Shown piece after piece: positions 3,440 through 27,754 of a DNA stretch of 64,000 nucleotides. Made by a program: the position numbers and the translations under genes. Under the pieces are notes generated by a model. That model ran no database searches, was not told the DNA's origin, and was given only the letters and a program-made list of their open reading frames with translations. This DNA comes from an uncultured Clostridia bacterium (GTDB taxonomy: Bacteria; Bacillota; Clostridia; TANB77; CAG-465), in contig CAKOYF010000001.1 in NCBI GenBank assembly GCA_934130595.1, forward strand, positions 68,290 to 132,289. The letters run 5' to 3'. Positions within the stretch are counted from its first letter, which is position 1; every line of letters begins with the position of its first letter.

Positions 3440-3967
3440 CTAAAATAATTGATTTAAATATTCATCTGTAAAACAATCTAGCAATAGTTCAAAGTTTTTT
3501 TTCTTTAATTTTTCAAAATCATTTGCTATTGCACTTTTTTCATTTTCGTTAAACAAATACGTACAATTATTTATAATTACTCTACCAATTGAGTTATTAT
3601 AATACTCTGCTGTTGAAAATTCTTCTTCTATAACATAGCTTGGTGAACTTTCATTAAAATATTTTTTTATATTTACCGAATTATAATTTTCAACTGTTTG
3701 TTCTTTATCATTCATCCATTTTCTGTTTTTTCTAGATAGATTATATTCTTCTCTTACATCTTCTGAAACTTTTAGATTTTTATAATTTTTAGGTATATCC
3801 TTTAAATTATACACATAATCTAAAATACTTGTTTCATAATATATAGAATATAGTCTTAATTTATAGAATTTTAGATAGCTATTTATTAGTACAGATAATG
3901 CCATTTCATAATCTTTCAAATGCTTATGTGTACTAGTTGTAGTAACTACAATAAAGTATGATGTCAA
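3440..3967 (-). CDS. Hypothetical protein, 175 aa, TTG start.
   Basis: ORF track. No recognisable motifs. Confidence 0.35.
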   Translation of the reverse strand: MTSYFIVVTTTSTHKHLKDYEMALSVLINSYLKFYKLRLYSIYYETSILDYVYNLKDIPKNYKNLKVSEDVREEYNLSRKNRKWMNDKEQTVENYNSVNIKKYFNESSPSYVIEEEFSTAEYYNNSIGRVIINNCTYLFNENEKSAIANDFEKLKKKNFELLLDCFTDEYLNQLF

Positions 3968-19774: not shown

Positions 19775-21673
19775 TCACCTCCAAGCCATATCTAAGAATT
19801 CATCAAAAGCTTTTATATCTTCTGCAGACATATTATCTCTCATTGCTTTAATGTTTTCTTCGCTAATAGGATTTTTAAATACATATTTTCCATCAACAAA
19901 TTCTACGATGTTTCTATATGTATAGTTTTTACTTTGTGTCATATGTTGAAAATATTCAACAGCATTATCCATAAACTTGTCTAGTTTTTGATTTACATCT
20001 TTTACTTTTCTATAATCATTATTATATGTATATGTTTGCTCTAATGGAATACATTCTGTTATTCTTTCAATGTATCTAGTACCATCTACAGCTCTTTTTA
20101 AATGTATATCAAAGTTTATAACTTGAACAACCTGTACTTCTGCAACTTGTTCAGAATTGAACATTCCAATTTTTAATAATGAGTTTCTAAGTGATGTTAT
20201 TAAGTTTGGAAATGTCTTTGCATGGTGTGTAAATAATGTAAATTTAGATGCAACCTGTGCCATCTGAATCATCCAAGCAGCAACTGGATCAGTTGCAACC
20301 TCTCCTAATATGTTTACACCACCATCTGTTTTCTTTTGAACATCTAGTCCTTCTTGTCCTGTTATAGTATCTGTTTCTCTTAAAGATAAGATGTTATGAT
20401 ATGGATAAATTTTTCTTAAGTGTAATTCGAATGCAGTTTCCTGTACACGAATTGTTATTGTTGGATATAAGAATTTCATTATAGCCATCAATAATGTAGT
20501 TTTACCACAACCCTGCTCACCAGTTATTGCAGTAACTCTGGCTCCTCTAATTAAATATTTTAATAACTCTACAACATTTTCTTTATTTTCATGAACAAGT
20601 AATTGTTCAGGTGAAATTAATGTAGGTGGAGCAAATTTTCTAACAAAAAAAGCCCAAGATTCAGAGAAGTTTGGTCTAAGAACAACAACTCTGGAACCAT
20701 CTTTCATTTCATTTATTTTATAACCAACAGACTCAGATAACTGTCCTGGGTTATTATATTTGTATATGTTTTGACATACTCTTTTTAACTCTGCTTCACT
20801 ACCAAAAGATAAGAAAGATAAATATGTAGCTTTACCTTTATAGAATATCCATACAGAATCATATGACATTGGTATTTTAGCTTCATTCATTTGTGTTAAG
20901 TAATCATCAATATCACTTAACTGATCTAGGAATGATGGTGGAATACCTGATACACCACCTGATACACCATCAATATTCATATCTCTTATATCATCTACGA
21001 CGCTATATCCTTTATATTCTTGGTATATTCTTTGTACTACTATCTCTAGCTTGTCTTCAAATGAAAGTGTTTCAGTTGAAACTTCATTTGTAAATATATC
21101 ATCAATCTCTTTTGCTGTAATTACATATGAAGGTACTGTAGCATCAAATTCATATTTTGGATAATCTAGAGCGTACTTTGTTATTATCTTTGTTAAAGCT
21201 TCTGCTTTATATGTTTTCTTGTAAATATGCATTAATATTTCAAATTTATCTTGTGATGTTAATTCATTAAAGTTATTAAATGGAATTGCATAGTTAATAT
21301 TAAAGTTATTTACTTTATAATCATTCTTTAGCAAATCAAACATTAATGATTTTACATACTTTTTATCATTTGAATCAGCATATCCGGCACCTTTTAAAGC
21401 TCTCTTTAATTCATATTTAACATTTTTTCTTCTTTCAAATTCTTCTTCAGATAATGCTAAATCATACAAATTCATTCTAGTAATTTCATCAAATTGCTTT
21501 TTTATATAATTTTGCATAGTAGAAAGACTATATGTTGTCTTTTCTCTTGTTAAACTATCTTCTACCATTTGGTCTGCACCAGATTTTTTTACTTTGTAAT
21601 AGAAAAACGCTGCTACAAATGCTAATAAAAGAAGTATTAACAAAATATTAAATACAAATGCAACTGACATCAT
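19775..21673 (-). CDS. Secretion/pilus ATPase of the TadA/CpaF/FlaI type (VirB11 superfamily), 632 aa, with an N-terminal TM anchor.
   Basis: Walker A GEQGCGKTT, Walker B and a His-box (THHAKT). No tetracysteine zinc motif, so not a GspE/PilB type. N-terminal helix VAFVFNILLILLLLAFVAAFFYY. Confidence 0.7.
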   Translation of the reverse strand: MMSVAFVFNILLILLLLAFVAAFFYYKVKKSGADQMVEDSLTREKTTYSLSTMQNYIKKQFDEITRMNLYDLALSEEEFERRKNVKYELKRALKGAGYADSNDKKYVKSLMFDLLKNDYKVNNFNINYAIPFNNFNELTSQDKFEILMHIYKKTYKAEALTKIITKYALDYPKYEFDATVPSYVITAKEIDDIFTNEVSTETLSFEDKLEIVVQRIYQEYKGYSVVDDIRDMNIDGVSGGVSGIPPSFLDQLSDIDDYLTQMNEAKIPMSYDSVWIFYKGKATYLSFLSFGSEAELKRVCQNIYKYNNPGQLSESVGYKINEMKDGSRVVVLRPNFSESWAFFVRKFAPPTLISPEQLLVHENKENVVELLKYLIRGARVTAITGEQGCGKTTLLMAIMKFLYPTITIRVQETAFELHLRKIYPYHNILSLRETDTITGQEGLDVQKKTDGGVNILGEVATDPVAAWMIQMAQVASKFTLFTHHAKTFPNLITSLRNSLLKIGMFNSEQVAEVQVVQVINFDIHLKRAVDGTRYIERITECIPLEQTYTYNNDYRKVKDVNQKLDKFMDNAVEYFQHMTQSKNYTYRNIVEFVDGKYVFKNPISEENIKAMRDNMSAEDIKAFDEFLDMAWR

Positions 21674-21683
21674 ATCACCCCTC

Positions 21684-22496
21684 TTACTCTTTTATTTTTA
21701 ATATTTTTACTATTTCCTCTACTATTTCTGTTGCCCTTAGCATAAACTCACCATTATAATCTTTTGCTGGAGCGTTTATATTTCTGTATAAAAAGTCTAA
21801 GACATTACCATCATTACATGCATCTGTAAATAAATAGTTATGTGGAAGTACGTAACATGGTTCTGGAATTTTGTACTTTAATTTAACATTAAAAATATTA
21901 TACTTAGATCCAGACTCATAATCTCCTAAAACAAATATTTTTTGTTTATCTTTTAAGCTATCTATACTATTAAGTTTCTTTAATACGTTATTCAATTTTT
22001 CTATTTCCTGAGGAATTACACACACTATAATGTCTGACTGTTCCATTACTCTTATTGCACTATCATCAGTAGTAGTCTTAGGTAAGTCTATAAACACTAA
22101 GTCATATACTTCATCTGCATTTTTAGCAATTAGTGGCATGCTAATTAAATTTTCTCTTTTTTCTGTTGTTGTATTAGCTATGGCACTATAAAGTATATCT
22201 AATCTTCCTTTTAATACAGGCTTTGAATAGTTTTGAATTATGTCCGGTGACAATTTATTACTCTTAATTAAACGCATTATTGCATTCATACCAAGATTAG
22301 TATCATTAAAACTATTTGCATTTACTAAATCATCATACATAGTAAATGATGAAGCTATTTTTTTAGCATTTGAATTTGCATCTATTAAAAGAGAAGATGT
22401 TTTATGTGTTATTCCCATTAGAGAACTAATAGCAATAGCAGTATGTGTACATCCACTTTTTCCCTCTTCTGGACTCCAAAATACAATCTTTGCCAT
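21684..22496 (-). CDS. ParA/MinD-family ATPase, TadZ/CpaE-like, 270 aa.
   Basis: N-terminal P-loop-like SPEEGKSGCT and Walker-B-like DLVFIDLP. RBS AGGAGGAG. Confidence 0.5.
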   Translation of the reverse strand: MAKIVFWSPEEGKSGCTHTAIAISSLMGITHKTSSLLIDANSNAKKIASSFTMYDDLVNANSFNDTNLGMNAIMRLIKSNKLSPDIIQNYSKPVLKGRLDILYSAIANTTTEKRENLISMPLIAKNADEVYDLVFIDLPKTTTDDSAIRVMEQSDIIVCVIPQEIEKLNNVLKKLNSIDSLKDKQKIFVLGDYESGSKYNIFNVKLKYKIPEPCYVLPHNYLFTDACNDGNVLDFLYRNINAPAKDYNGEFMLRATEIVEEIVKILKIKE

Positions 22497-23204
22497 TTAA
22501 TTTCTCCTCCTTTTTATTTCTTTTAATACTTCTTTAGAAGAAACATCTCCTAATATTCTAGAAATATACTCACATAAGTACAATATATATGTTTTTGTAT
22601 GTTTTCTTAAATCTATAAGTCCACTGAATTGTGAATCTATATTAACCATCATATCTTGTTCATCAGTACTAATATCATAAACCTCATCTGTCCACTTAAC
22701 TGCATAATTATTTATTTTTTCTTCTAAATAATTTGTTGCTGCTCTAGATAAGTATGCTCTATATAAAATCTTTGAAAATACTAATTCTTTATCTGGATTT
22801 TCTTCTCTCATTTTATGTACAAGTTCATCATTTTTTGTTACTGATATAACATTAGTATCTATATACATATATGATTTATCTACTTGTAAATCTTTAAATT
22901 TAGCGTACGTATTTGCATCCTCTATATCTATTAAGACATAATTATATAATTTAAGATCTATATTCTTTTCACTTAAATATTTTTCTAATGAATCGTATGA
23001 ATCAAACCCAACTGCAAAGTCTATATCCGCATATCTAGTTACATATTCTGAGCTATTATCTATAGTTGGTACTATACATTTATATTTTTTATCTGATGTA
23101 GCATCAATTACTAATACAGATTTTCCCATAATATTTAAAGCTCTAGCTGTTGCAATTACAAAGTCATATTTATCTACATATCCATACATTCCAATTACTT
23201 GCAT
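22497..23204 (-). CDS. ParA/MinD-fold protein with a degenerate P-loop (likely pseudo-ATPase), 235 aa.
   Basis: N-terminus VIGMYGYVDKYDFVIATARALNIMGKSVLVIDAT aligns to ParA-family architecture but lacks the GKT/S lysine. Confidence 0.4.
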   Translation of the reverse strand: MQVIGMYGYVDKYDFVIATARALNIMGKSVLVIDATSDKKYKCIVPTIDNSSEYVTRYADIDFAVGFDSYDSLEKYLSEKNIDLKLYNYVLIDIEDANTYAKFKDLQVDKSYMYIDTNVISVTKNDELVHKMREENPDKELVFSKILYRAYLSRAATNYLEEKINNYAVKWTDEVYDISTDEQDMMVNIDSQFSGLIDLRKHTKTYILYLCEYISRILGDVSSKEVLKEIKRRRN

Positions 23205-23219
23205 TTAAACTACCTCCTA

Positions 23220-24251
23220 CTATTTTCCTTCTAATAAGTTTTCTCTTTCAGTTTGTTGCATAATAATAGATTGTTGTGCTCCTGTAACTACATTTTCGTA
23301 ATCATCACTATTTTGTGATTTGTAGTTTTTGATTCCACTTTCTATTGTAGATCTTGACTCAGCATTTAATCTTGAAAGCTCAGTACTTGCATTTTTTAGT
23401 AAATATTGGTTTGATTTCATAGCACTCATAACATAAGTATTTGGTTGATAGTTTTGTGTTGTTTTTGTTGAAGCATTTGCAAAGTTTTTATATTTATATA
23501 TATAATCATATAATTTAGTTGCTGCTTCAGTTACATCCATCTTTTTAAGTTCATCCCAGTCTTTTTCAATAACTGTTTCAAGATATCCTTTTGTTTCACT
23601 TTCAATATCTGAAGATGTTTTAACTTGAGCATCACTATCTGTATATCTTAAAGCATATAATTTAGATCCACTGTTTAAGAAAGAATCAACTACTGCACTG
23701 TTTAATAGTTGGATTTCATCCTCAGATAATTTCATCCAGAAAGTTGTGTCATATATTTTATCTATGTTCTTTTGTGCAAGAACTATGTAATCTGTTCCAT
23801 TAGGATACATTATTCTAATATCTACAGTATCTCCCTCAACAAGATCACTAGGCATAAGAACTGTATTTATTTCAACGTCTCTTACATCAGCAGCTACAAC
23901 TTCATCACTTACCATATCTCCTGTAATAGGCACTTTTGCAGCTATATTATATTTTGCACTTAGTCCAACAACACTTCCTGAAGATACAACTCCTGTTGGT
24001 ACTGTATGATTGTTTACATTTACAGTTTCAATCATATCTGCAGTTATAATTTCTCCTTGTACAACGTTTCTTTTTAAAACAACTACTGGTGTAGTATAGT
24101 TTTTAATATAATTTTTGTTTGTTCCATCTTTATATGATTTTATAGTAAAGAAAGAAAATACACTTACACCAACGGCTACAACGATTCCAACACTAGCTCC
24201 AATCAATATACCTTGTATTGTTTTCTTTTTAATTTGACTCATTCCTATCAT
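23220..24251 (-). CDS. CpaB/RcpC-like pilus assembly protein (N-terminal TM plus SAF domain), 343 aa. First gene of the operon.
   Basis: TM helix ILIGASVGIVVAVGVSVFSFF followed by a SAF-like segment (VVVLKRNVVQGEIITADMIETVNV). RBS GGAGG. Confidence 0.5.
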   Translation of the reverse strand: MIGMSQIKKKTIQGILIGASVGIVVAVGVSVFSFFTIKSYKDGTNKNYIKNYTTPVVVLKRNVVQGEIITADMIETVNVNNHTVPTGVVSSGSVVGLSAKYNIAAKVPITGDMVSDEVVAADVRDVEINTVLMPSDLVEGDTVDIRIMYPNGTDYIVLAQKNIDKIYDTTFWMKLSEDEIQLLNSAVVDSFLNSGSKLYALRYTDSDAQVKTSSDIESETKGYLETVIEKDWDELKKMDVTEAATKLYDYIYKYKNFANASTKTTQNYQPNTYVMSAMKSNQYLLKNASTELSRLNAESRSTIESGIKNYKSQNSDDYENVVTGAQQSIIMQQTERENLLEGK

Positions 24252-24473: not shown

Positions 24474-25665
24474 CAAATATAAATTTTAGATAATCTGTTA
24501 TTCTTGATTTATTTATAGTATTATTAGCAACAATGTTAGTCTTGCCTATGCTTTCATTTGTATTTTTATCTATTATTTCTACACTTCCAATAATATCACC
24601 AGATTCTATTGGTGCAGATAGTTCTTCATTATATGTAACAATTTGATCTGTATCAACATTTTTGCCTCTTTCCACAAGACTATATATATCATCTTGTAAC
24701 CTTGTTTCTAGTTTTTCTGCTATATTTTTGTTGATTTGTAATTCCTCTAAAATAGTACTAGAAGAGCATATTTTTTTCGTTTCATACGTTGCAAATCCAT
24801 AATCTAGCAACGTTTTTGTTTCAGCAAGTCTTACATCTGAGCTTGGAGCTTTCATTACAACAGATATATACGTTGTATCTTTACGTGTTGCAGTAGCTAC
24901 TAAATTATATAACGCATTAGAAGTATATCCTGTTTTTAATCCTGTAGCTCCATCATAAAATCTAATTAGTTTATTTGTACTAGTAAGCTCTGTCTTTCCA
25001 CCTCTTAAGCTATCCATCCAAATTGAAGTATAATTTAAAATATTAGGGTGTTTAGTTATTAATTCTCGAGCCATAAGAGCTACATCTTTTGCACATGTGT
25101 AATGACCTTCTTCATCTATGCCATGACAATTCATAAAATGTGTGTTTTCCATTCCTAGTTCTCTTGCTTTAGCATTCATAGCAATAACAAAATTTTCTTC
25201 GTTTCCTCCAATTAGTTCTGCCATTGCAACGGTTACATCGTTTGCTGAAACTACACATATAGCTTTTAATGCCTCATCTATTGTTAATTGTTCTCCTTCT
25301 TCAAACCATATTTGAGAGCCACCCATACTTGCAGCATTCTTACTACAAGTTACTGTATCTGTATATTCTAATACTCCTGAATCTATCTGTTCCATTATTA
25401 ATAACAAAGTCATAACCTTTGTAACAGACGCCGGAAGCATTCGTTCATTTTCATTATTTGCATATAATATTCTACCAGTACTCGGTTCCATTAATATTTG
25501 CGCCTCAGATTCAAATGTAAAAGAAGGATTAGCAACTGTTGAAATACTACTTTCTTGCTTATCTTTTGACTTCTTTTCATATAAATAATTTGCACCAAAT
25601 ATATACTGTATATTCAACATATTAACTATTAGTAATGCAATTAGTATTTTATATAACTTATTCAC
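24451..25665 (-). CDS. dacF: Serine-type D-Ala-D-Ala carboxypeptidase (PBP5/DacF-like).
   Basis: SVTK (SxxK), SAND (SxN) and KTG motifs. Start trimmed to GTG at 25665 (GAGGTGGAATAT RBS); the ORF-track start is an upstream TTG that overlaps the likely promoter. Confidence 0.65.
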   Translation of the reverse strand: MNKLYKILIALLIVNMLNIQYIFGANYLYEKKSKDKQESSISTVANPSFTFESEAQILMEPSTGRILYANNENERMLPASVTKVMTLLLIMEQIDSGVLEYTDTVTCSKNAASMGGSQIWFEEGEQLTIDEALKAICVVSANDVTVAMAELIGGNEENFVIAMNAKARELGMENTHFMNCHGIDEEGHYTCAKDVALMARELITKHPNILNYTSIWMDSLRGGKTELTSTNKLIRFYDGATGLKTGYTSNALYNLVATATRKDTTYISVVMKAPSSDVRLAETKTLLDYGFATYETKKICSSSTILEELQINKNIAEKLETRLQDDIYSLVERGKNVDTDQIVTYNEELSAPIESGDIIGSVEIIDKNTNESIGKTNIVANNTINKSRITDYLKFIFGKFLLKQ

Positions 25666-25775
25666 ATATTCCACCTCAATATATTGTATTAAATAATATG
25701 TAAATTTATTAATTATATTGTATAAATATACAATCCTAGCTTTCAAATTTTTATACTAGTATATTGGAAATATAT

Positions 25776-25859
25776 ATAAATAAGGAGATATGATTTAACA
25801 TATCTCCTCTGTATTTCACAAACGTATATAAGACAAAAATTCCACAAATCTTATATACT
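25776..25859 (-). ncRNA. Candidate sRNA, unit A.
   Basis: Minus-strand promoter TTGAAT-17-TGaTATACT (-35 at 25889..25894, -10 at 25866..25871). Body has hairpin 2 (GUAUAUAAGA/UCUUAUAUAC) and terminator hairpin GGAGAUAUG/CAUAUCUCC (25784..25807) followed by a U-tract. Confidence 0.55.
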
Positions 25860-25895
25860 AACCATAGTATATCATAATTTTGCTTTCTATTCAAA

Positions 25896-25980
25896 TAAAA
25901 ATAAGGAGATATGATTTAGCATATCTCCCATGTATTTCACAAACGTATATAAGACAAAAAATTCACCAATCTTATATACT
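25896..25980 (-). ncRNA. Candidate sRNA, unit B.
   Basis: Promoter TTGAAC-17-TGcTATACT (-10 at 25987..25992). Terminator hairpin at 25905..25928 followed by a UUAUUUUUAUUU tract. Confidence 0.55.
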
Positions 25981-26015
25981 AACTATAGTATAGCATATTT
26001 CTGTTTTTTGTTCAA

Positions 26016-26101
26016 ATTAAATAAGGAGATATGACTTAACATATCTCCTCTGTTTATAACCAATGTATATAAGACAAAAAAATTCACCAATCTTATATAC
26101 T
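26016..26101 (-). ncRNA. Candidate sRNA, unit C.
   Basis: Promoter TTTACA-17-TGgTATACT (-10 at 26108..26113). Terminator hairpin at 26025..26048. Confidence 0.55.
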
Positions 26102-26132
26102 AATATTAGTATACCATATTTATATAAAAATG

Positions 26133-26210
26133 TAAAAGGAGATTAGAGCTCTCCTTTTACGTCATACAACAAAGATATATAGGTCTATAAAAACCCATTC
26201 CCTATATATC
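26133..26210 (-). ncRNA. Candidate sRNA, unit X (divergent body).
   Basis: Promoter TTGAAC-17-TGtTATAAT (-35 at 26240..26245, -10 at 26217..26222). Distinct terminator AAAAGGAG/CUCCUUUU at 26134..26158 followed by a U-tract. Confidence 0.45.
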
Positions 26211-26247
26211 AATTGTATTATAACATAATTTTGTTTTTGGTTCAAAT

Positions 26248-26331
26248 TAAAATAAGTAGATATGATTTAACATATCTACTCTGTTTGTAATATCATATAT
26301 AAGACAAAAAATTCCTCAAATCTTATATACA
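26248..26331 (-). ncRNA. Candidate sRNA, unit D.
   Basis: Promoter TGaTATACT with a weak -35. The terminator hairpin carries a compensatory double substitution (GUAGAUAUG/CAUAUCUAC at 26256..26279) that preserves pairing. Confidence 0.55.
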
Positions 26332-26669
26332 AGTATTAGTATATCATGTTTTAAAATAAAAATAAACAAGATATTATATCTTCTTTACTATTAGCACCAC
26401 ACCATAGCTTTCTTTATATTTAGTATTAAAGATTATTCTCCAAAATACTTTTTGATCTATTCGTCGCCTAAAACTTTACCGCCCACATAGACTATCTGGA
26501 GTTTTCTAATAACAAAAAATATGGAGAAAAATCTTCTCTTTTATTTAATATAATGAATCTAAATCATTTATATCTATACTATATAATTATATTCTACTTG
26601 TATAAGTTACAGTAGTTTTGGCACAGTTATTAAACTAAAAATTTTAATTCAAAAGCTCAATTTAAGCTA

Positions 26670-27056
26670 CTAATCTTTGCTAATTTTAGTTTTAATACAT
26701 TTTTTTATTAAATTTCCTACAAATATTCCAACTAAGGATATGATTCCAAATATAACAAATATACTTATATCGGGAATAACAAATCTCTTATATGCTAAAT
26801 CATACGTTATATAATCACATAACATAATAGAGATTCCAAAAAGTAAAACTAAAAGGTATTTACTTCTACCTCTAATTTTCAAACTATAAATTACTGATGT
26901 AATAAAAGTACTCAAAGGAAATAAATAAATAAAATATATTATACCGCCTAATCCTGTGCCCTCAACATCTTTATTACGCCAAAGTATTATTTCTGATATA
27001 ATCAAAATAATAAAATATATAATTATTGGTAAAAAATCCTTAATTTTTTTCTTCAT
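26670..27056 (-). CDS. Small polytopic membrane protein, 128 aa (about 4 TM helices), function unknown.
   Basis: ORF track. Hydrophobicity pattern. Flanked by direct copies of the sRNA unit. Confidence 0.4.
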   Translation of the reverse strand: MKKKIKDFLPIIIYFIILIISEIILWRNKDVEGTGLGGIIYFIYLFPLSTFITSVIYSLKIRGRSKYLLVLLFGISIMLCDYITYDLAYKRFVIPDISIFVIFGIISLVGIFVGNLIKKCIKTKISKD

Positions 27057-27537
27057 ATATACTCCACCTCTCTTATTTTAATATTATCATAAAAAAATAT
27101 ATTTACAATATCTAATATTACAATTAAGCATTTTTATCTACTTACATTTAAATTATTATTTAGATTTTAATTAAGATTCAATTTTATCTAAATTCTTCTT
27201 AATATATAGAAGTCTTATAACGCTTTTGGCTCAGTTTTTTCTTGGATCATGTATTACTCACCTATTCTACAATTTTAGGTAATTCTGTATATAATAGTTA
27301 TTTTCTAGTTCTAATATTGGTAAATATAAATCCTTTTTTAGATTTTCTAATACATTTACATGTACAATTGAAATTTCTACTTCTTTAAAATCAATTTTTA
27401 CAATTCTAAATTAAAATTTGGTTATATACTCATCTTCTTGCAGTTCTAACTTATTAAAATTTAATTCATATACTTTTTCTAAATCCAATTTAGCTATAAA
27501 CATTTTAAAATCATCTTTATTTGCTTTCTATTCAAAT

Positions 27538-27621
27538 TAAAATAAGGAGATATGATCTAACATATCTCCTCTGTATTTCACAAACGTATATAAGACAAAA
27601 ATTCCACAAATCTTATATACT
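27538..27621 (-). ncRNA. Candidate sRNA, unit E (solo copy).
   Basis: Promoter TTTACA-17-TGaTATTAT (-35 at 27651..27656, -10 at 27628..27633). Terminator hairpin at 27546..27569. About 95% identical to unit A. Confidence 0.5.
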
Positions 27622-27754
27622 AATATTATAATATCATATTTATATGAAAATGTAAAATGAGTCTTTTGTAATCTCTTTATTTACGCTTTTAGTTATATAT
27701 ATTATATTTATGTAATTTATTTTGTTCATATTATTGAATAAAAAGCGCTTTCTA

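Follow-up and report, generated by a model that had tools for sequence, protein, structure and literature searches.

The stretch analysed here, called the window throughout, comprises 64,000 nucleotides of contig CAKOYF010000001.1 from an uncultured gut Clostridia lineage. Its minus strand carries, at 25776-26372, five head-to-tail units of about 120 bp each, designated A to E, and a lone sixth copy, unit F (Table 1). Each unit consists of an extended −10 promoter, an RNA of ~83 nt with two hairpins and an intrinsic terminator. In related contigs such units sit directly downstream of an open reading frame (ORF) of ~104 amino acids, named p104, and two unpaired segments of the small RNA (sRNA) are complementary to the beginning of the p104 mRNA. 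Below we present the evidence that these RNAs are probably translational repressors comparable to the antitoxins of toxin-antitoxin systems of type I.

The tandem organization is recovered by Tandem Repeats Finder (25774-26121, period of 121 bp, 2.9 copies, 87% matches) and by a repeat search giving four in-register copies spaced by 121, 120 and 231. The covariance model R1, built from 25 distinct copies and run without filters on the entire window, finds five A-type RNAs, all on the minus strand (88-105 bits, E ≤ 6e-15), as well as the divergent unit B, and no further credible match in the 64 kb. Nine terminator-like sites are observed in 25000-27200, where 0.3 are expected. The original prediction of tandem ~120-bp units, each with its own promoter, two-hairpin RNA and terminator, is thereby borne out; five units do lie in tandem with one of them divergent, but the sixth copy, F, had escaped it. 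It had also assigned every unit a complete promoter: an extended −10 is present in the units and four of them have full promoters (TTGAAC, TTGAAT or TTTACA, a 17-nt spacer and TATACT or TATAAT with TG upstream), but that of unit A is only an extended −10. An 18-nt perfect palindrome, TATACTAATATTAGTATA (26103-26120, minus strand), extends over unit C's −10 box and transcription start and is imperfect in the other units; it could be an operator, or simply follow from the fact that hairpin 1 opens with the reverse complement of TATACT.

Hairpin 1 contains 10 bp (GUAUAUAAGA-N15/16-UCUUAUAUAC) closing a loop of about 13-17 nt, and is followed by a single-stranded linker of 14-17 nt and by a terminator hairpin of 9-11 bp with a U-rich tract. 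This two-hairpin fold is the minimum free energy structure of every copy. Among the 25 distinct A-type copies 97.7% of the stem cells are paired, and nearly every exception concerns the terminator stem's outermost pair. Where only one side of a core stem pair is substituted, the result is G·U on the minus strand and would be C·A on the other, and one stem pair switches from G-C to U-A. With L018 and unit B included, both sides have changed in 11 of the 21 pairs, and the observed values were not attained in any of 500 shuffles; this alignment was fitted to the model, and one sequence accounts for most of its double changes. Distant copies keep the same fold with different stems (GCAUAUAAGA/UCUUAUAUGU, GAUAUAUGAG/CUCAUAUAU and GAUAUAUAGG/CCUAUAUAUC). 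Because the stem substitutions are wobble or compensatory on the minus strand only, that strand is the functional one, as had been proposed. The conserved part of the RNA is its stems and the variable part its unpaired loop and linker, which is unusual for a trans-acting sRNA.

The units are best read as non-coding. The earlier statement that no ORF longer than five codons follows GGAGAUAUG does not stand at the DNA level, as the AUG of GGAGAUAUG opens frames of 16 and 19 codons in units E and C; these frames cross the terminator and are not conserved, which argues for the non-coding reading. A micropeptide was likewise considered and discarded, since by our own reading the frames starting from the hairpin-1 loop (UUG) or from GGAGAUAUG vary in length and frame. 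The sRNA family is multicopy, as had been proposed, and absent from Rfam: no Rfam 15 family, including tRNAs, riboswitches and leaders, reaches its gathering score anywhere in the window, the matches at E ≤ 10 in 25600-26700 are chance-level hits to RatA, Ref66 and caiA, and a scan of six related loci returned a tRNA only. Full-text searches of the literature did not find such a system described.

The sRNA family is rare. Pattern scans gave at least three true loci in GTDB genomes and at least three in JGI metagenomes; IMG/VR gave no viral loci, and blastn against PLSDB and INPHARED only AT-rich chance matches. The locus is identical in the same-species metagenome contigs L001 and L003, and a variant with eight tandem units is present in L002. 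Copy number and unit order vary between strains, with 5, 8 (L002:10727-11641) and 13 (L013:9770-12609) units. Contigs L004, L005 and L010 end inside the array; published metagenome-assembled genomes probably under-represent it because short-read assemblies break within. Loops and linkers are combined in many ways across arrays, which indicates recombination between units.

Wherever a contig carrying p104 extends downstream, at least one unit follows the p104 terminator directly, and no p104 lacking a downstream unit was seen among the contigs reaching far enough. This linkage holds in L006, L011, L013 (twice), L014-16, L018-26, L027, L028, L030 and L032, while orphan sRNAs are found in the window and in L008. 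The gene p104 occurs in conjugative elements and their remnants. L006 and L024 carry a conjugative element with the order MobC, relaxase, T4CP, TrbL, p104, one or two units, PrgI and VirB4. In L013, L018, L025 and L032, p104 and its unit are intact where conjugation genes are decayed or absent. In L013, a Hadza-metagenome contig, synteny with the window extends from the GT4 gene as far as dac; the contig carries unit F, then an intact p104 with five units, and beyond an IS200-like remnant a second p104 with seven more units. The remnant, of an IS200/IS605-like transposase, lies between the two sRNA arrays (L013:10985-11250; L011:725-1000). In L018 prgI and virB4 are decayed after the module and a Thoeris pair is nearby. 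The module of L018/L019 (L018:10444-11767) adjoins decayed prgI/virB4 fragments, a GH25-LysM lysin and Thoeris ThsA/ThsB, surroundings that look like a defence or mobile-element island.

Protein p104 is very rare, with nine clusters among 5.8 billion proteins and six representatives among 1.84 billion, and no relatives were found in Pfam, PADLOC, PHROG or the PDB. Its predicted fold is a three-helix bundle (pLDDT, the predicted local distance difference test, of 80) whose structural matches are generic helical bundles only. The predicted p104 promoter has an extended −10 of the type shared with the units. It is followed by a leader of ~115 nt with three conserved elements: a terminator-like hairpin (GAGGUAUAAUUAC..GUAGUUAUAUC) with U6-7; a Shine-Dalgarno (SD)/anti-SD hairpin predicted to sequester the ribosome-binding site (RBS); and a segment of 11-13 nt complementary to positions +16 to +31 of the ORF, which encode the invariant D-A-N codons. 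The stem formed by this last segment and the ORF shows compensatory changes in L030 and L032. As modelled, such an arrangement is typical of translationally inert toxin mRNAs.

When each unit was compared with the neighbouring p104 mRNA by RNAduplex, strong and localized signals appeared at two sites. At site 1 the linker is complementary to the start codon and the four codons after it (2-5); examples are CUUGUUAAAAGCAU with AUGCUUUUAACAAG in L006, AUUGGUUAUAAACA with UGUUUAUAACCAAU for unit 1 of L013, and UUUGUCAUAAUCAU with AUGAUUAUGACAAA for unit 5 of L013 and the second p104. At site 2 codons ~10-13 are the partner of the hairpin-1 loop (for example, UGGGCGAUA with UAUCGCCCA). Eleven protein/sRNA systems were compared, among them the homologues of ~30% identity P0010 and P0013 (L030, L032) and the B-type system described below. 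Linker pairing begins at +1/+2 and spans 7-14 nt of Watson-Crick pairs, or up to 17 nt in most systems when G·U is counted, being weakest in L027 and L032; loop pairing begins at +27 to +33 and spans 7-9 nt. The summed runs average 19.7 nt for cognate and 9.9 nt for non-cognate combinations, the mean duplex energies are −29.4 and −12.8 kcal/mol, respectively, and none of 100,000 random re-pairings reached the observed sum.

Precisely at these two positions p104 is hypervariable. Its identity falls to 0.45 in the start site and to 0.61 in the loop site, whereas the DANV codons that separate them reach 0.98 and the remainder of the protein averages 0.80. The p104 proteins of L006 and L024 are 97% identical, and their three differing residues are all in the loop site; the sRNA loops differ to match, UUGGCGAAA pairing with UUUCGCCAA in one case and UUUGUGGAA with UUCCACAA in the other. 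To judge from the sequences, nature has here carried out an experiment on loop-site pairing. Site 1 is located in the loop closed by the leader/ORF stem and site 2 directly 3′ of that stem, a geometry from which we infer a complex with two intermolecular helices flanking two intramolecular ones. Centromere or iteron, oriT/sso and CsrA-sponge functions had also been considered, and were dropped because the antisense relation explains the variable segments.

Unit B belongs to a second subfamily of the same design. Its orthologues in L009 and L033 follow an ORF of 59 amino acids (p59), which has no detectable homology with p104 and, by eye, is acidic and devoid of hydrophobic stretches. The B linker pairs with the AUG and codons 2-4 of p59 and the B loop with positions +30 to +37, while residues 2-9 of p59 are hypervariable among the nine known homologues. 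The p59 mRNA is likewise predicted to form a conserved SD/anti-SD hairpin, and it has an analogous leader/ORF stem of 13-14 nt with compensatory changes at the same position, unrelated in sequence to that of p104. L033 contains two B-type units of different specificity, and the linker of the second is suggestively complementary to the back-translated MVQHK N-terminus of p59 allele P0021. The p59/B system is chromosomal, beside hisS and a TetR-family gene and without conjugation genes. A conserved element of ~100 nt (CGATTCTAAGGCGCCCTAGAGATAATTCT...GTAGTCCAA..., with terminator AGCTTAAGAGAAATCTTAAGCT) precedes every B-type unit and is duplicated with the unit in L033.

The variability of the unpaired segments bears directly on the mode of action first envisaged, namely translation blocking in the manner of the streptococcal csRNAs. 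Under that proposal the units would be csRNA/LhrC-like siblings whose anti-SD/anti-AUG sequence, CAUAUCUCCUU, blocks many RBSs. This sequence is complementary to an RBS of the AAGGAGAUAUG type, and the tandem siblings recall lhrC1-4 (PMC4211561); but in every copy CAUAUCUCCUU is the 3′ arm of the 9-11-bp terminator stem, the unpaired regions are variable and not anti-SD, Rfam gives no match to csRNA, LhrC or other families, and a specific two-site target accounts for the variable regions. We regard such global SD targeting as very improbable and the RNAs as putative allele-specific antisense regulators of a mobile-element protein. Translation blocking itself is still the most likely outcome; it would be exerted, however, by the variable loop and linker on p104 or p59 and not by the conserved, stem-locked terminator arm. 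A role of this arm as seed, or in pairing with the SD hairpin of p104, was also rejected, as its likeness to the p104 anti-SD, AUAUCUCC, is lost in the distant L030 and L032.

In the window p104 itself is missing. According to blastn, the segment 27889-27520 corresponds in L013 to the GT4 gene's start, unit F and the p104 promoter's −35 region, unit F being syntenic with the unit that precedes the intact p104 there; and 26461-25778 matches L013 10287-10981, that is, the last ~28 nt of p104, its 3′ untranslated region (UTR), the terminator and the array. Between both matches a replacement segment has taken the place of the gene. It encodes on the minus strand (ORF 26670-27056) a multi-pass membrane protein of 128 amino acids with no Pfam family. 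The terminator of the p104 remnant, AAGAAGAUAUAAUAUCUUG plus a U run, leads into unit A. No p104 is found by tblastn in the 64 kb. Because p104 has been deleted and replaced, the array is an orphan one. The units are independent sRNA genes, as originally predicted, but their mobile-element origin and the deletion of the target had been missed. Elsewhere on the minus strand, downstream of the D-Ala-D-Ala carboxypeptidase gene, 19775-24251 holds a Tad/Flp-pilus-like cluster (a SAF-domain CpaB-like protein of 343 amino acids, two ParA/MinD-like proteins and a secretion ATPase of 632 amino acids), for which no link to the array was seen.

Table 1. Coordinates of the sRNA units, of the p104 locus in the window and of related elements in other contigs
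Feature	Position	Strand	Details
Unit E, A-type sRNA gene	25776-25894	−	104.8 bits
Unit E promoter	−35 TTGAAT at 25894; TGaTATACT ends 25866	−	
Unit E RNA	25858-25776	−	hairpin-1 arms 25858-25849 and 25833-25824
Unit E specificity loop	25848-25834	−	UUUGUGGAAUUUUUG
Unit E specificity linker	25823-25810	−	GUUUGUGAAAUACA
Unit E terminator	stem 25809-25782; U tract 25781-25776	−	
Unit D, A-type sRNA gene	25897-26015	−	102 bits
Unit D promoter	26015-25987	−	
Unit D RNA	25979-25897	−	loop UUGGUGAAUUUUUUG; linker GUUUGUGAAAUACAUG
Unit C, A-type sRNA gene	26017-26136	−	100.2 bits
Unit C promoter	26136-26108	−	TTTACA-17-TGgTATACT
Unit C RNA	26100-26017	−	loop UUGGUGAAUUUUUUUG; linker AUUGGUUAUAAACA
Unit B, divergent B-type sRNA gene	26126-26245	−	33 bits, E 4e-4
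Unit B promoter	26245-26217	−	TTGAAC-17-TGtTATAAT
Unit B RNA	about 26209-26126	−	hairpin 1 GAUAUAUAGG/CCUAUAUAUC; terminator GUAAAAGGAGA/UCUCCUUUUAC
Unit A, A-type sRNA gene	26248-26346	−	88.3 bits
Unit A extended −10	26346-26338	−	TGaTATACT
Unit A RNA	26330-26248	−	loop UUUGAGGAAUUUUUUG; linker GAUAUUACAAACA
Unit A terminator		−	compensatory G-C to U-A pair, GUAGAUAUG/CAUAUCUAC
p104 remnant	26355-26461	−	last ~28 nt of ORF, stop codon 26435-26433, 3′ UTR, terminator
Replacement segment, ~1.06 kb	26462-27519	−	in place of p104 leader and most of ORF
p104 promoter stump	27520-27535	−	TTGAATAGAAAGCAAA; directly after unit F; L013 homology ends here
Unit F, lone sixth A-type sRNA gene	27538-27656	−	104.7 bits
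Unit F promoter		−	TTTACA-17-TGaTATTAT
Unit F RNA	27620-27538	−	specificity segments identical to unit E
p104 leader RNA	L013:9856-10003; L006:5425-5544; L030:737-855; L032:2877-3003		
Element preceding B-type units, ~100 nt	L009:6340-6530	−	no Rfam match
Element preceding B-type units, ~100 nt	L033:3185-3345, 3455-3570		no Rfam match

The array of the window comprises four distinct A-type specificities and one B-type. For unit C the fully cognate target is the P0005-type p104 (MFITND...), with 14 nt at the start codon and 7 nt at codons ~11-13, and the P0005 allele occupies this same locus in L013. The linkers of units D, E and F fit the MYFTS-type start region of P0003/P0006, and their loops fit other alleles: the unit E linker has 12 nt complementary to the MYFTS-type alleles of L027/L029 and its loop 9 nt complementary to the L028 allele, while the unit D linker matches the L027/L029 allele over 13 nt and its loop the L013a allele over 7 nt. 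Unit A has no match among the sampled p104 alleles. The target 5′ sequences predicted are AUGUUUGUAAUAUC...UUCCUCAAA for unit A, AUGUAUUUCACAAAC...UUCCACAAA for units E and F, and AUGUCAUACAACAAAG...AAACCCAUUCC for unit B, the last of which was not found in the window.

An array deprived of its partner might be no more than a functionless relic of a mobile element, its promoter-terminator cassettes drifting since the loss of p104. The deletion of p104, the lack of a target in the 64 kb, the variation in copy number between strains and the contigs breaking inside the array would all fit such decay. We nevertheless consider it improbable: all six units keep an intact extended −10, both stems and their terminators, the stem substitutions are wobble or compensatory, the arrangement of B and A units upstream of dac is kept in a different species (L009, whose dac is ~90% identical by eye), and targets may exist in the rest of the genome, beyond the window.

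Taking these data together, we propose that the units are trans-encoded, type-I-antitoxin-like translational repressors of p104 and p59 and that the arrays constitute allele-specific repertoires, a reading to which, on the sequence evidence, we assign a probability of about 0.7. It is supported in silico by the anatomy of the genes, the selection on the RNA stems, the linkage to p104 and p59, the cognate complementarity at two sites and the deletion of p104 in the window, whereas transcription, translational repression, the toxicity of p104 and a protective role of the orphan array are inferred. In the model, the strong extended −10 promoter would start the RNA at the 10-bp 5′ hairpin, and loop and linker would stay single-stranded as the determinants of specificity. 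The linker would bind the start codon and codons 2-5, and the loop codons ~10-13, of p104 for A-type and of p59 for B-type RNAs; the two sites would flank the conserved leader/ORF stem that already encloses the RBS. Binding of the sRNA would then block initiation and probably trigger cleavage, so that a tightly controlled and probably harmful protein is kept silent, the RNAs acting like type I antitoxins. Co-variation of target sites and sRNA segments would produce many mutually specific alleles, and recombination between units would shuffle loops and linkers. Arrays would expand and contract, holding RNAs against alleles present on other elements, and the orphan array would most plausibly neutralize p104/p59 alleles elsewhere in the genome or on incoming conjugative elements.

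The main rival to this proposal is a fertility control similar to that of FinP, in which p104 would be a positive regulator or component of conjugation, the sRNAs would keep the transfer genes off and chromosomal arrays would silence several types of element. In L006, L024 and L012 the modules do lie within a type IV secretion system operon (relaxase, T4CP, TrbL, p104, unit or units, PrgI, VirB4), the last unit is immediately upstream of prgI with a weakened U tract, and the RNAs, with their two stem-loops and allele-specific unpaired segments, resemble FinP. Yet p104 and its sRNA remain intact despite decayed or absent conjugation genes, the predicted structure of p104 shows no DNA-binding fold, the analogous p59/B system is chromosomal and devoid of conjugation genes, and the sRNA is trans-encoded on the same strand and not cis-antisense. 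We consider such a control unlikely, though less so than the decay of the array. An addiction module is favoured over a conjugation regulator because p104 appears silenced at several levels, because no p104 was seen without a unit while orphan sRNAs exist, because p104 survives intact in decayed elements and because the target sites have diversified.

Several points weigh against the antitoxin-like reading. Typical type I toxins are short (<~70 amino acids), hydrophobic or transmembrane peptides (PMC2887945), whereas p104 is a predicted soluble three-helix bundle of 104 amino acids. Database and structure searches did not detect any p104 relative of known function. The cognate pair of L027 shows two C·A mismatches at the linker site, several array members lack a match among the sampled alleles, and the sample of sequences is small and comes from one narrow lineage (the nine clusters among 5.8 billion proteins mentioned above). 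In the window no sRNA target site is present besides the opposite strand of the sRNA genes themselves, so that the array here could be a decaying relic.

If the module is confirmed, it would represent a new family, as Pfam, Rfam, PADLOC, PHROGs and the PDB contain neither partner, and its mechanism would be legible from sequence: a structured mRNA element flanked by the two parts, loop and linker, of an antisense code. The co-variation of the target coding sequence and the sRNA at two short sites would provide natural orthogonal sRNA/mRNA pairs, possibly useful as programmable translational repressors in Clostridia. More tentatively, and with the odds rather against it, the chromosomal arrays may be a heritable antisense repertoire, shuffled by recombination, that immunizes the host or a resident element against p104/p59 'addiction' genes. 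If true, this would be an RNA-based anti-addiction or exclusion system directed at many different incoming conjugative elements, with its specificity written in two exchangeable modules engaged in an arms race with hypervariable N-terminal codons. Amplification of the RNA partner alone (arrays of 5-13 genes that differ in specificity, orphan arrays among them) departs from the duplication of whole pairs known at type I loci and, for RNA antitoxins, renders the anti-addiction idea testable in uncultured gut Clostridia.

Some features of the system are shared with other RNA regulators. The tandem RNA-antitoxin-like repeats beside a small protein gene on mobile elements recall the type III system ToxIN. 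ToxI, however, is a single transcript of 36-nt repeats that is encoded upstream of toxN, is cut by the toxin and binds the protein; no single processed transcript upstream of the protein gene is apparent here, but units of 120 bp with their own promoters and terminators, downstream of the gene and complementary to its mRNA. FinP, which acts on traJ, is also a two-stem-loop RNA of ~80 nt on a conjugative element that represses translation of one element protein by pairing near its RBS and start, and its alleles are plasmid-specific (for the FinO/ProQ family, see the review PMC9977716). FinP is encoded in cis, opposite the traJ leader, and depends on FinO, while the units, each with its own promoter, follow p104 on its own strand as trans-encoded RNAs of a module that survives without conjugation genes; no FinO-domain gene was seen in the partial Pfam annotation of the flanks. 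LhrC1-5 of Listeria and csRNA1-5 of Streptococcus (PMC4211561) are likewise paralogues of ~90-100 nt, some of them in tandem, with own promoter and terminator, that repress translation. They share a conserved unpaired CU-rich or anti-SD seed and serve chromosomal regulons, whereas here loop and linker are the most variable columns, the anti-SD-like sequence is paired and the unpaired segments match one gene family.

Type I systems come nearer. The Sib sRNAs are specific for their own toxin mRNA through short recognition domains. Like the units, the E. coli loci ibs-sib and ldr-rdl occur as repeats within a single intergenic region (Fozo et al. 2010, PMC2887945), but there the whole toxin-antitoxin pair is repeated and the sRNA is cis-antisense, while here the sRNA gene alone is amplified beside zero to two toxin-like genes per locus. 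Closest among the known systems are RalR/RalA, ZorO/OrzO and TisB/IstR-1, type I pairs with a trans-encoded sRNA. In them, as here, an sRNA with its own promoter adjoins the gene without overlapping it, is complementary over a short, perfect stretch to the 5′ part of the mRNA and is associated with mobile elements. Base-pairing of the sRNA with the toxin mRNA is found here in silico in the 11 systems, and sequestration of the RBS is predicted for the p104 and p59 mRNAs. That type I toxins are not necessarily membrane peptides is shown by RalR/RalA, whose complementarity spans 16 nt and whose toxin is soluble (PMC4041452). ZorO/OrzO has 18 nt of complementarity and a 3-nt variable region that separates the duplicated loci (PMC3919570); there as here a few nucleotides tell duplicated loci apart, in the V1 region in the case of OrzO and OrzP. 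The protein and RNA families described here are unrelated to these pairs, and the sRNA gene follows the protein gene on the same strand. Their complementarity of 16-19 nt is replaced by 7-14 plus 7-9 nt, divided over two sites on either side of an mRNA stem, one for a linker and one for a hairpin loop, and up to 13 differently specific sRNA genes, most without a local target, are found per locus beside a protein whose toxicity is presumed. What is new with respect to the known systems is therefore both gene families, the bipartite recognition, the amplification of the RNA alone, and the arrays that are orphan or of mixed specificity.

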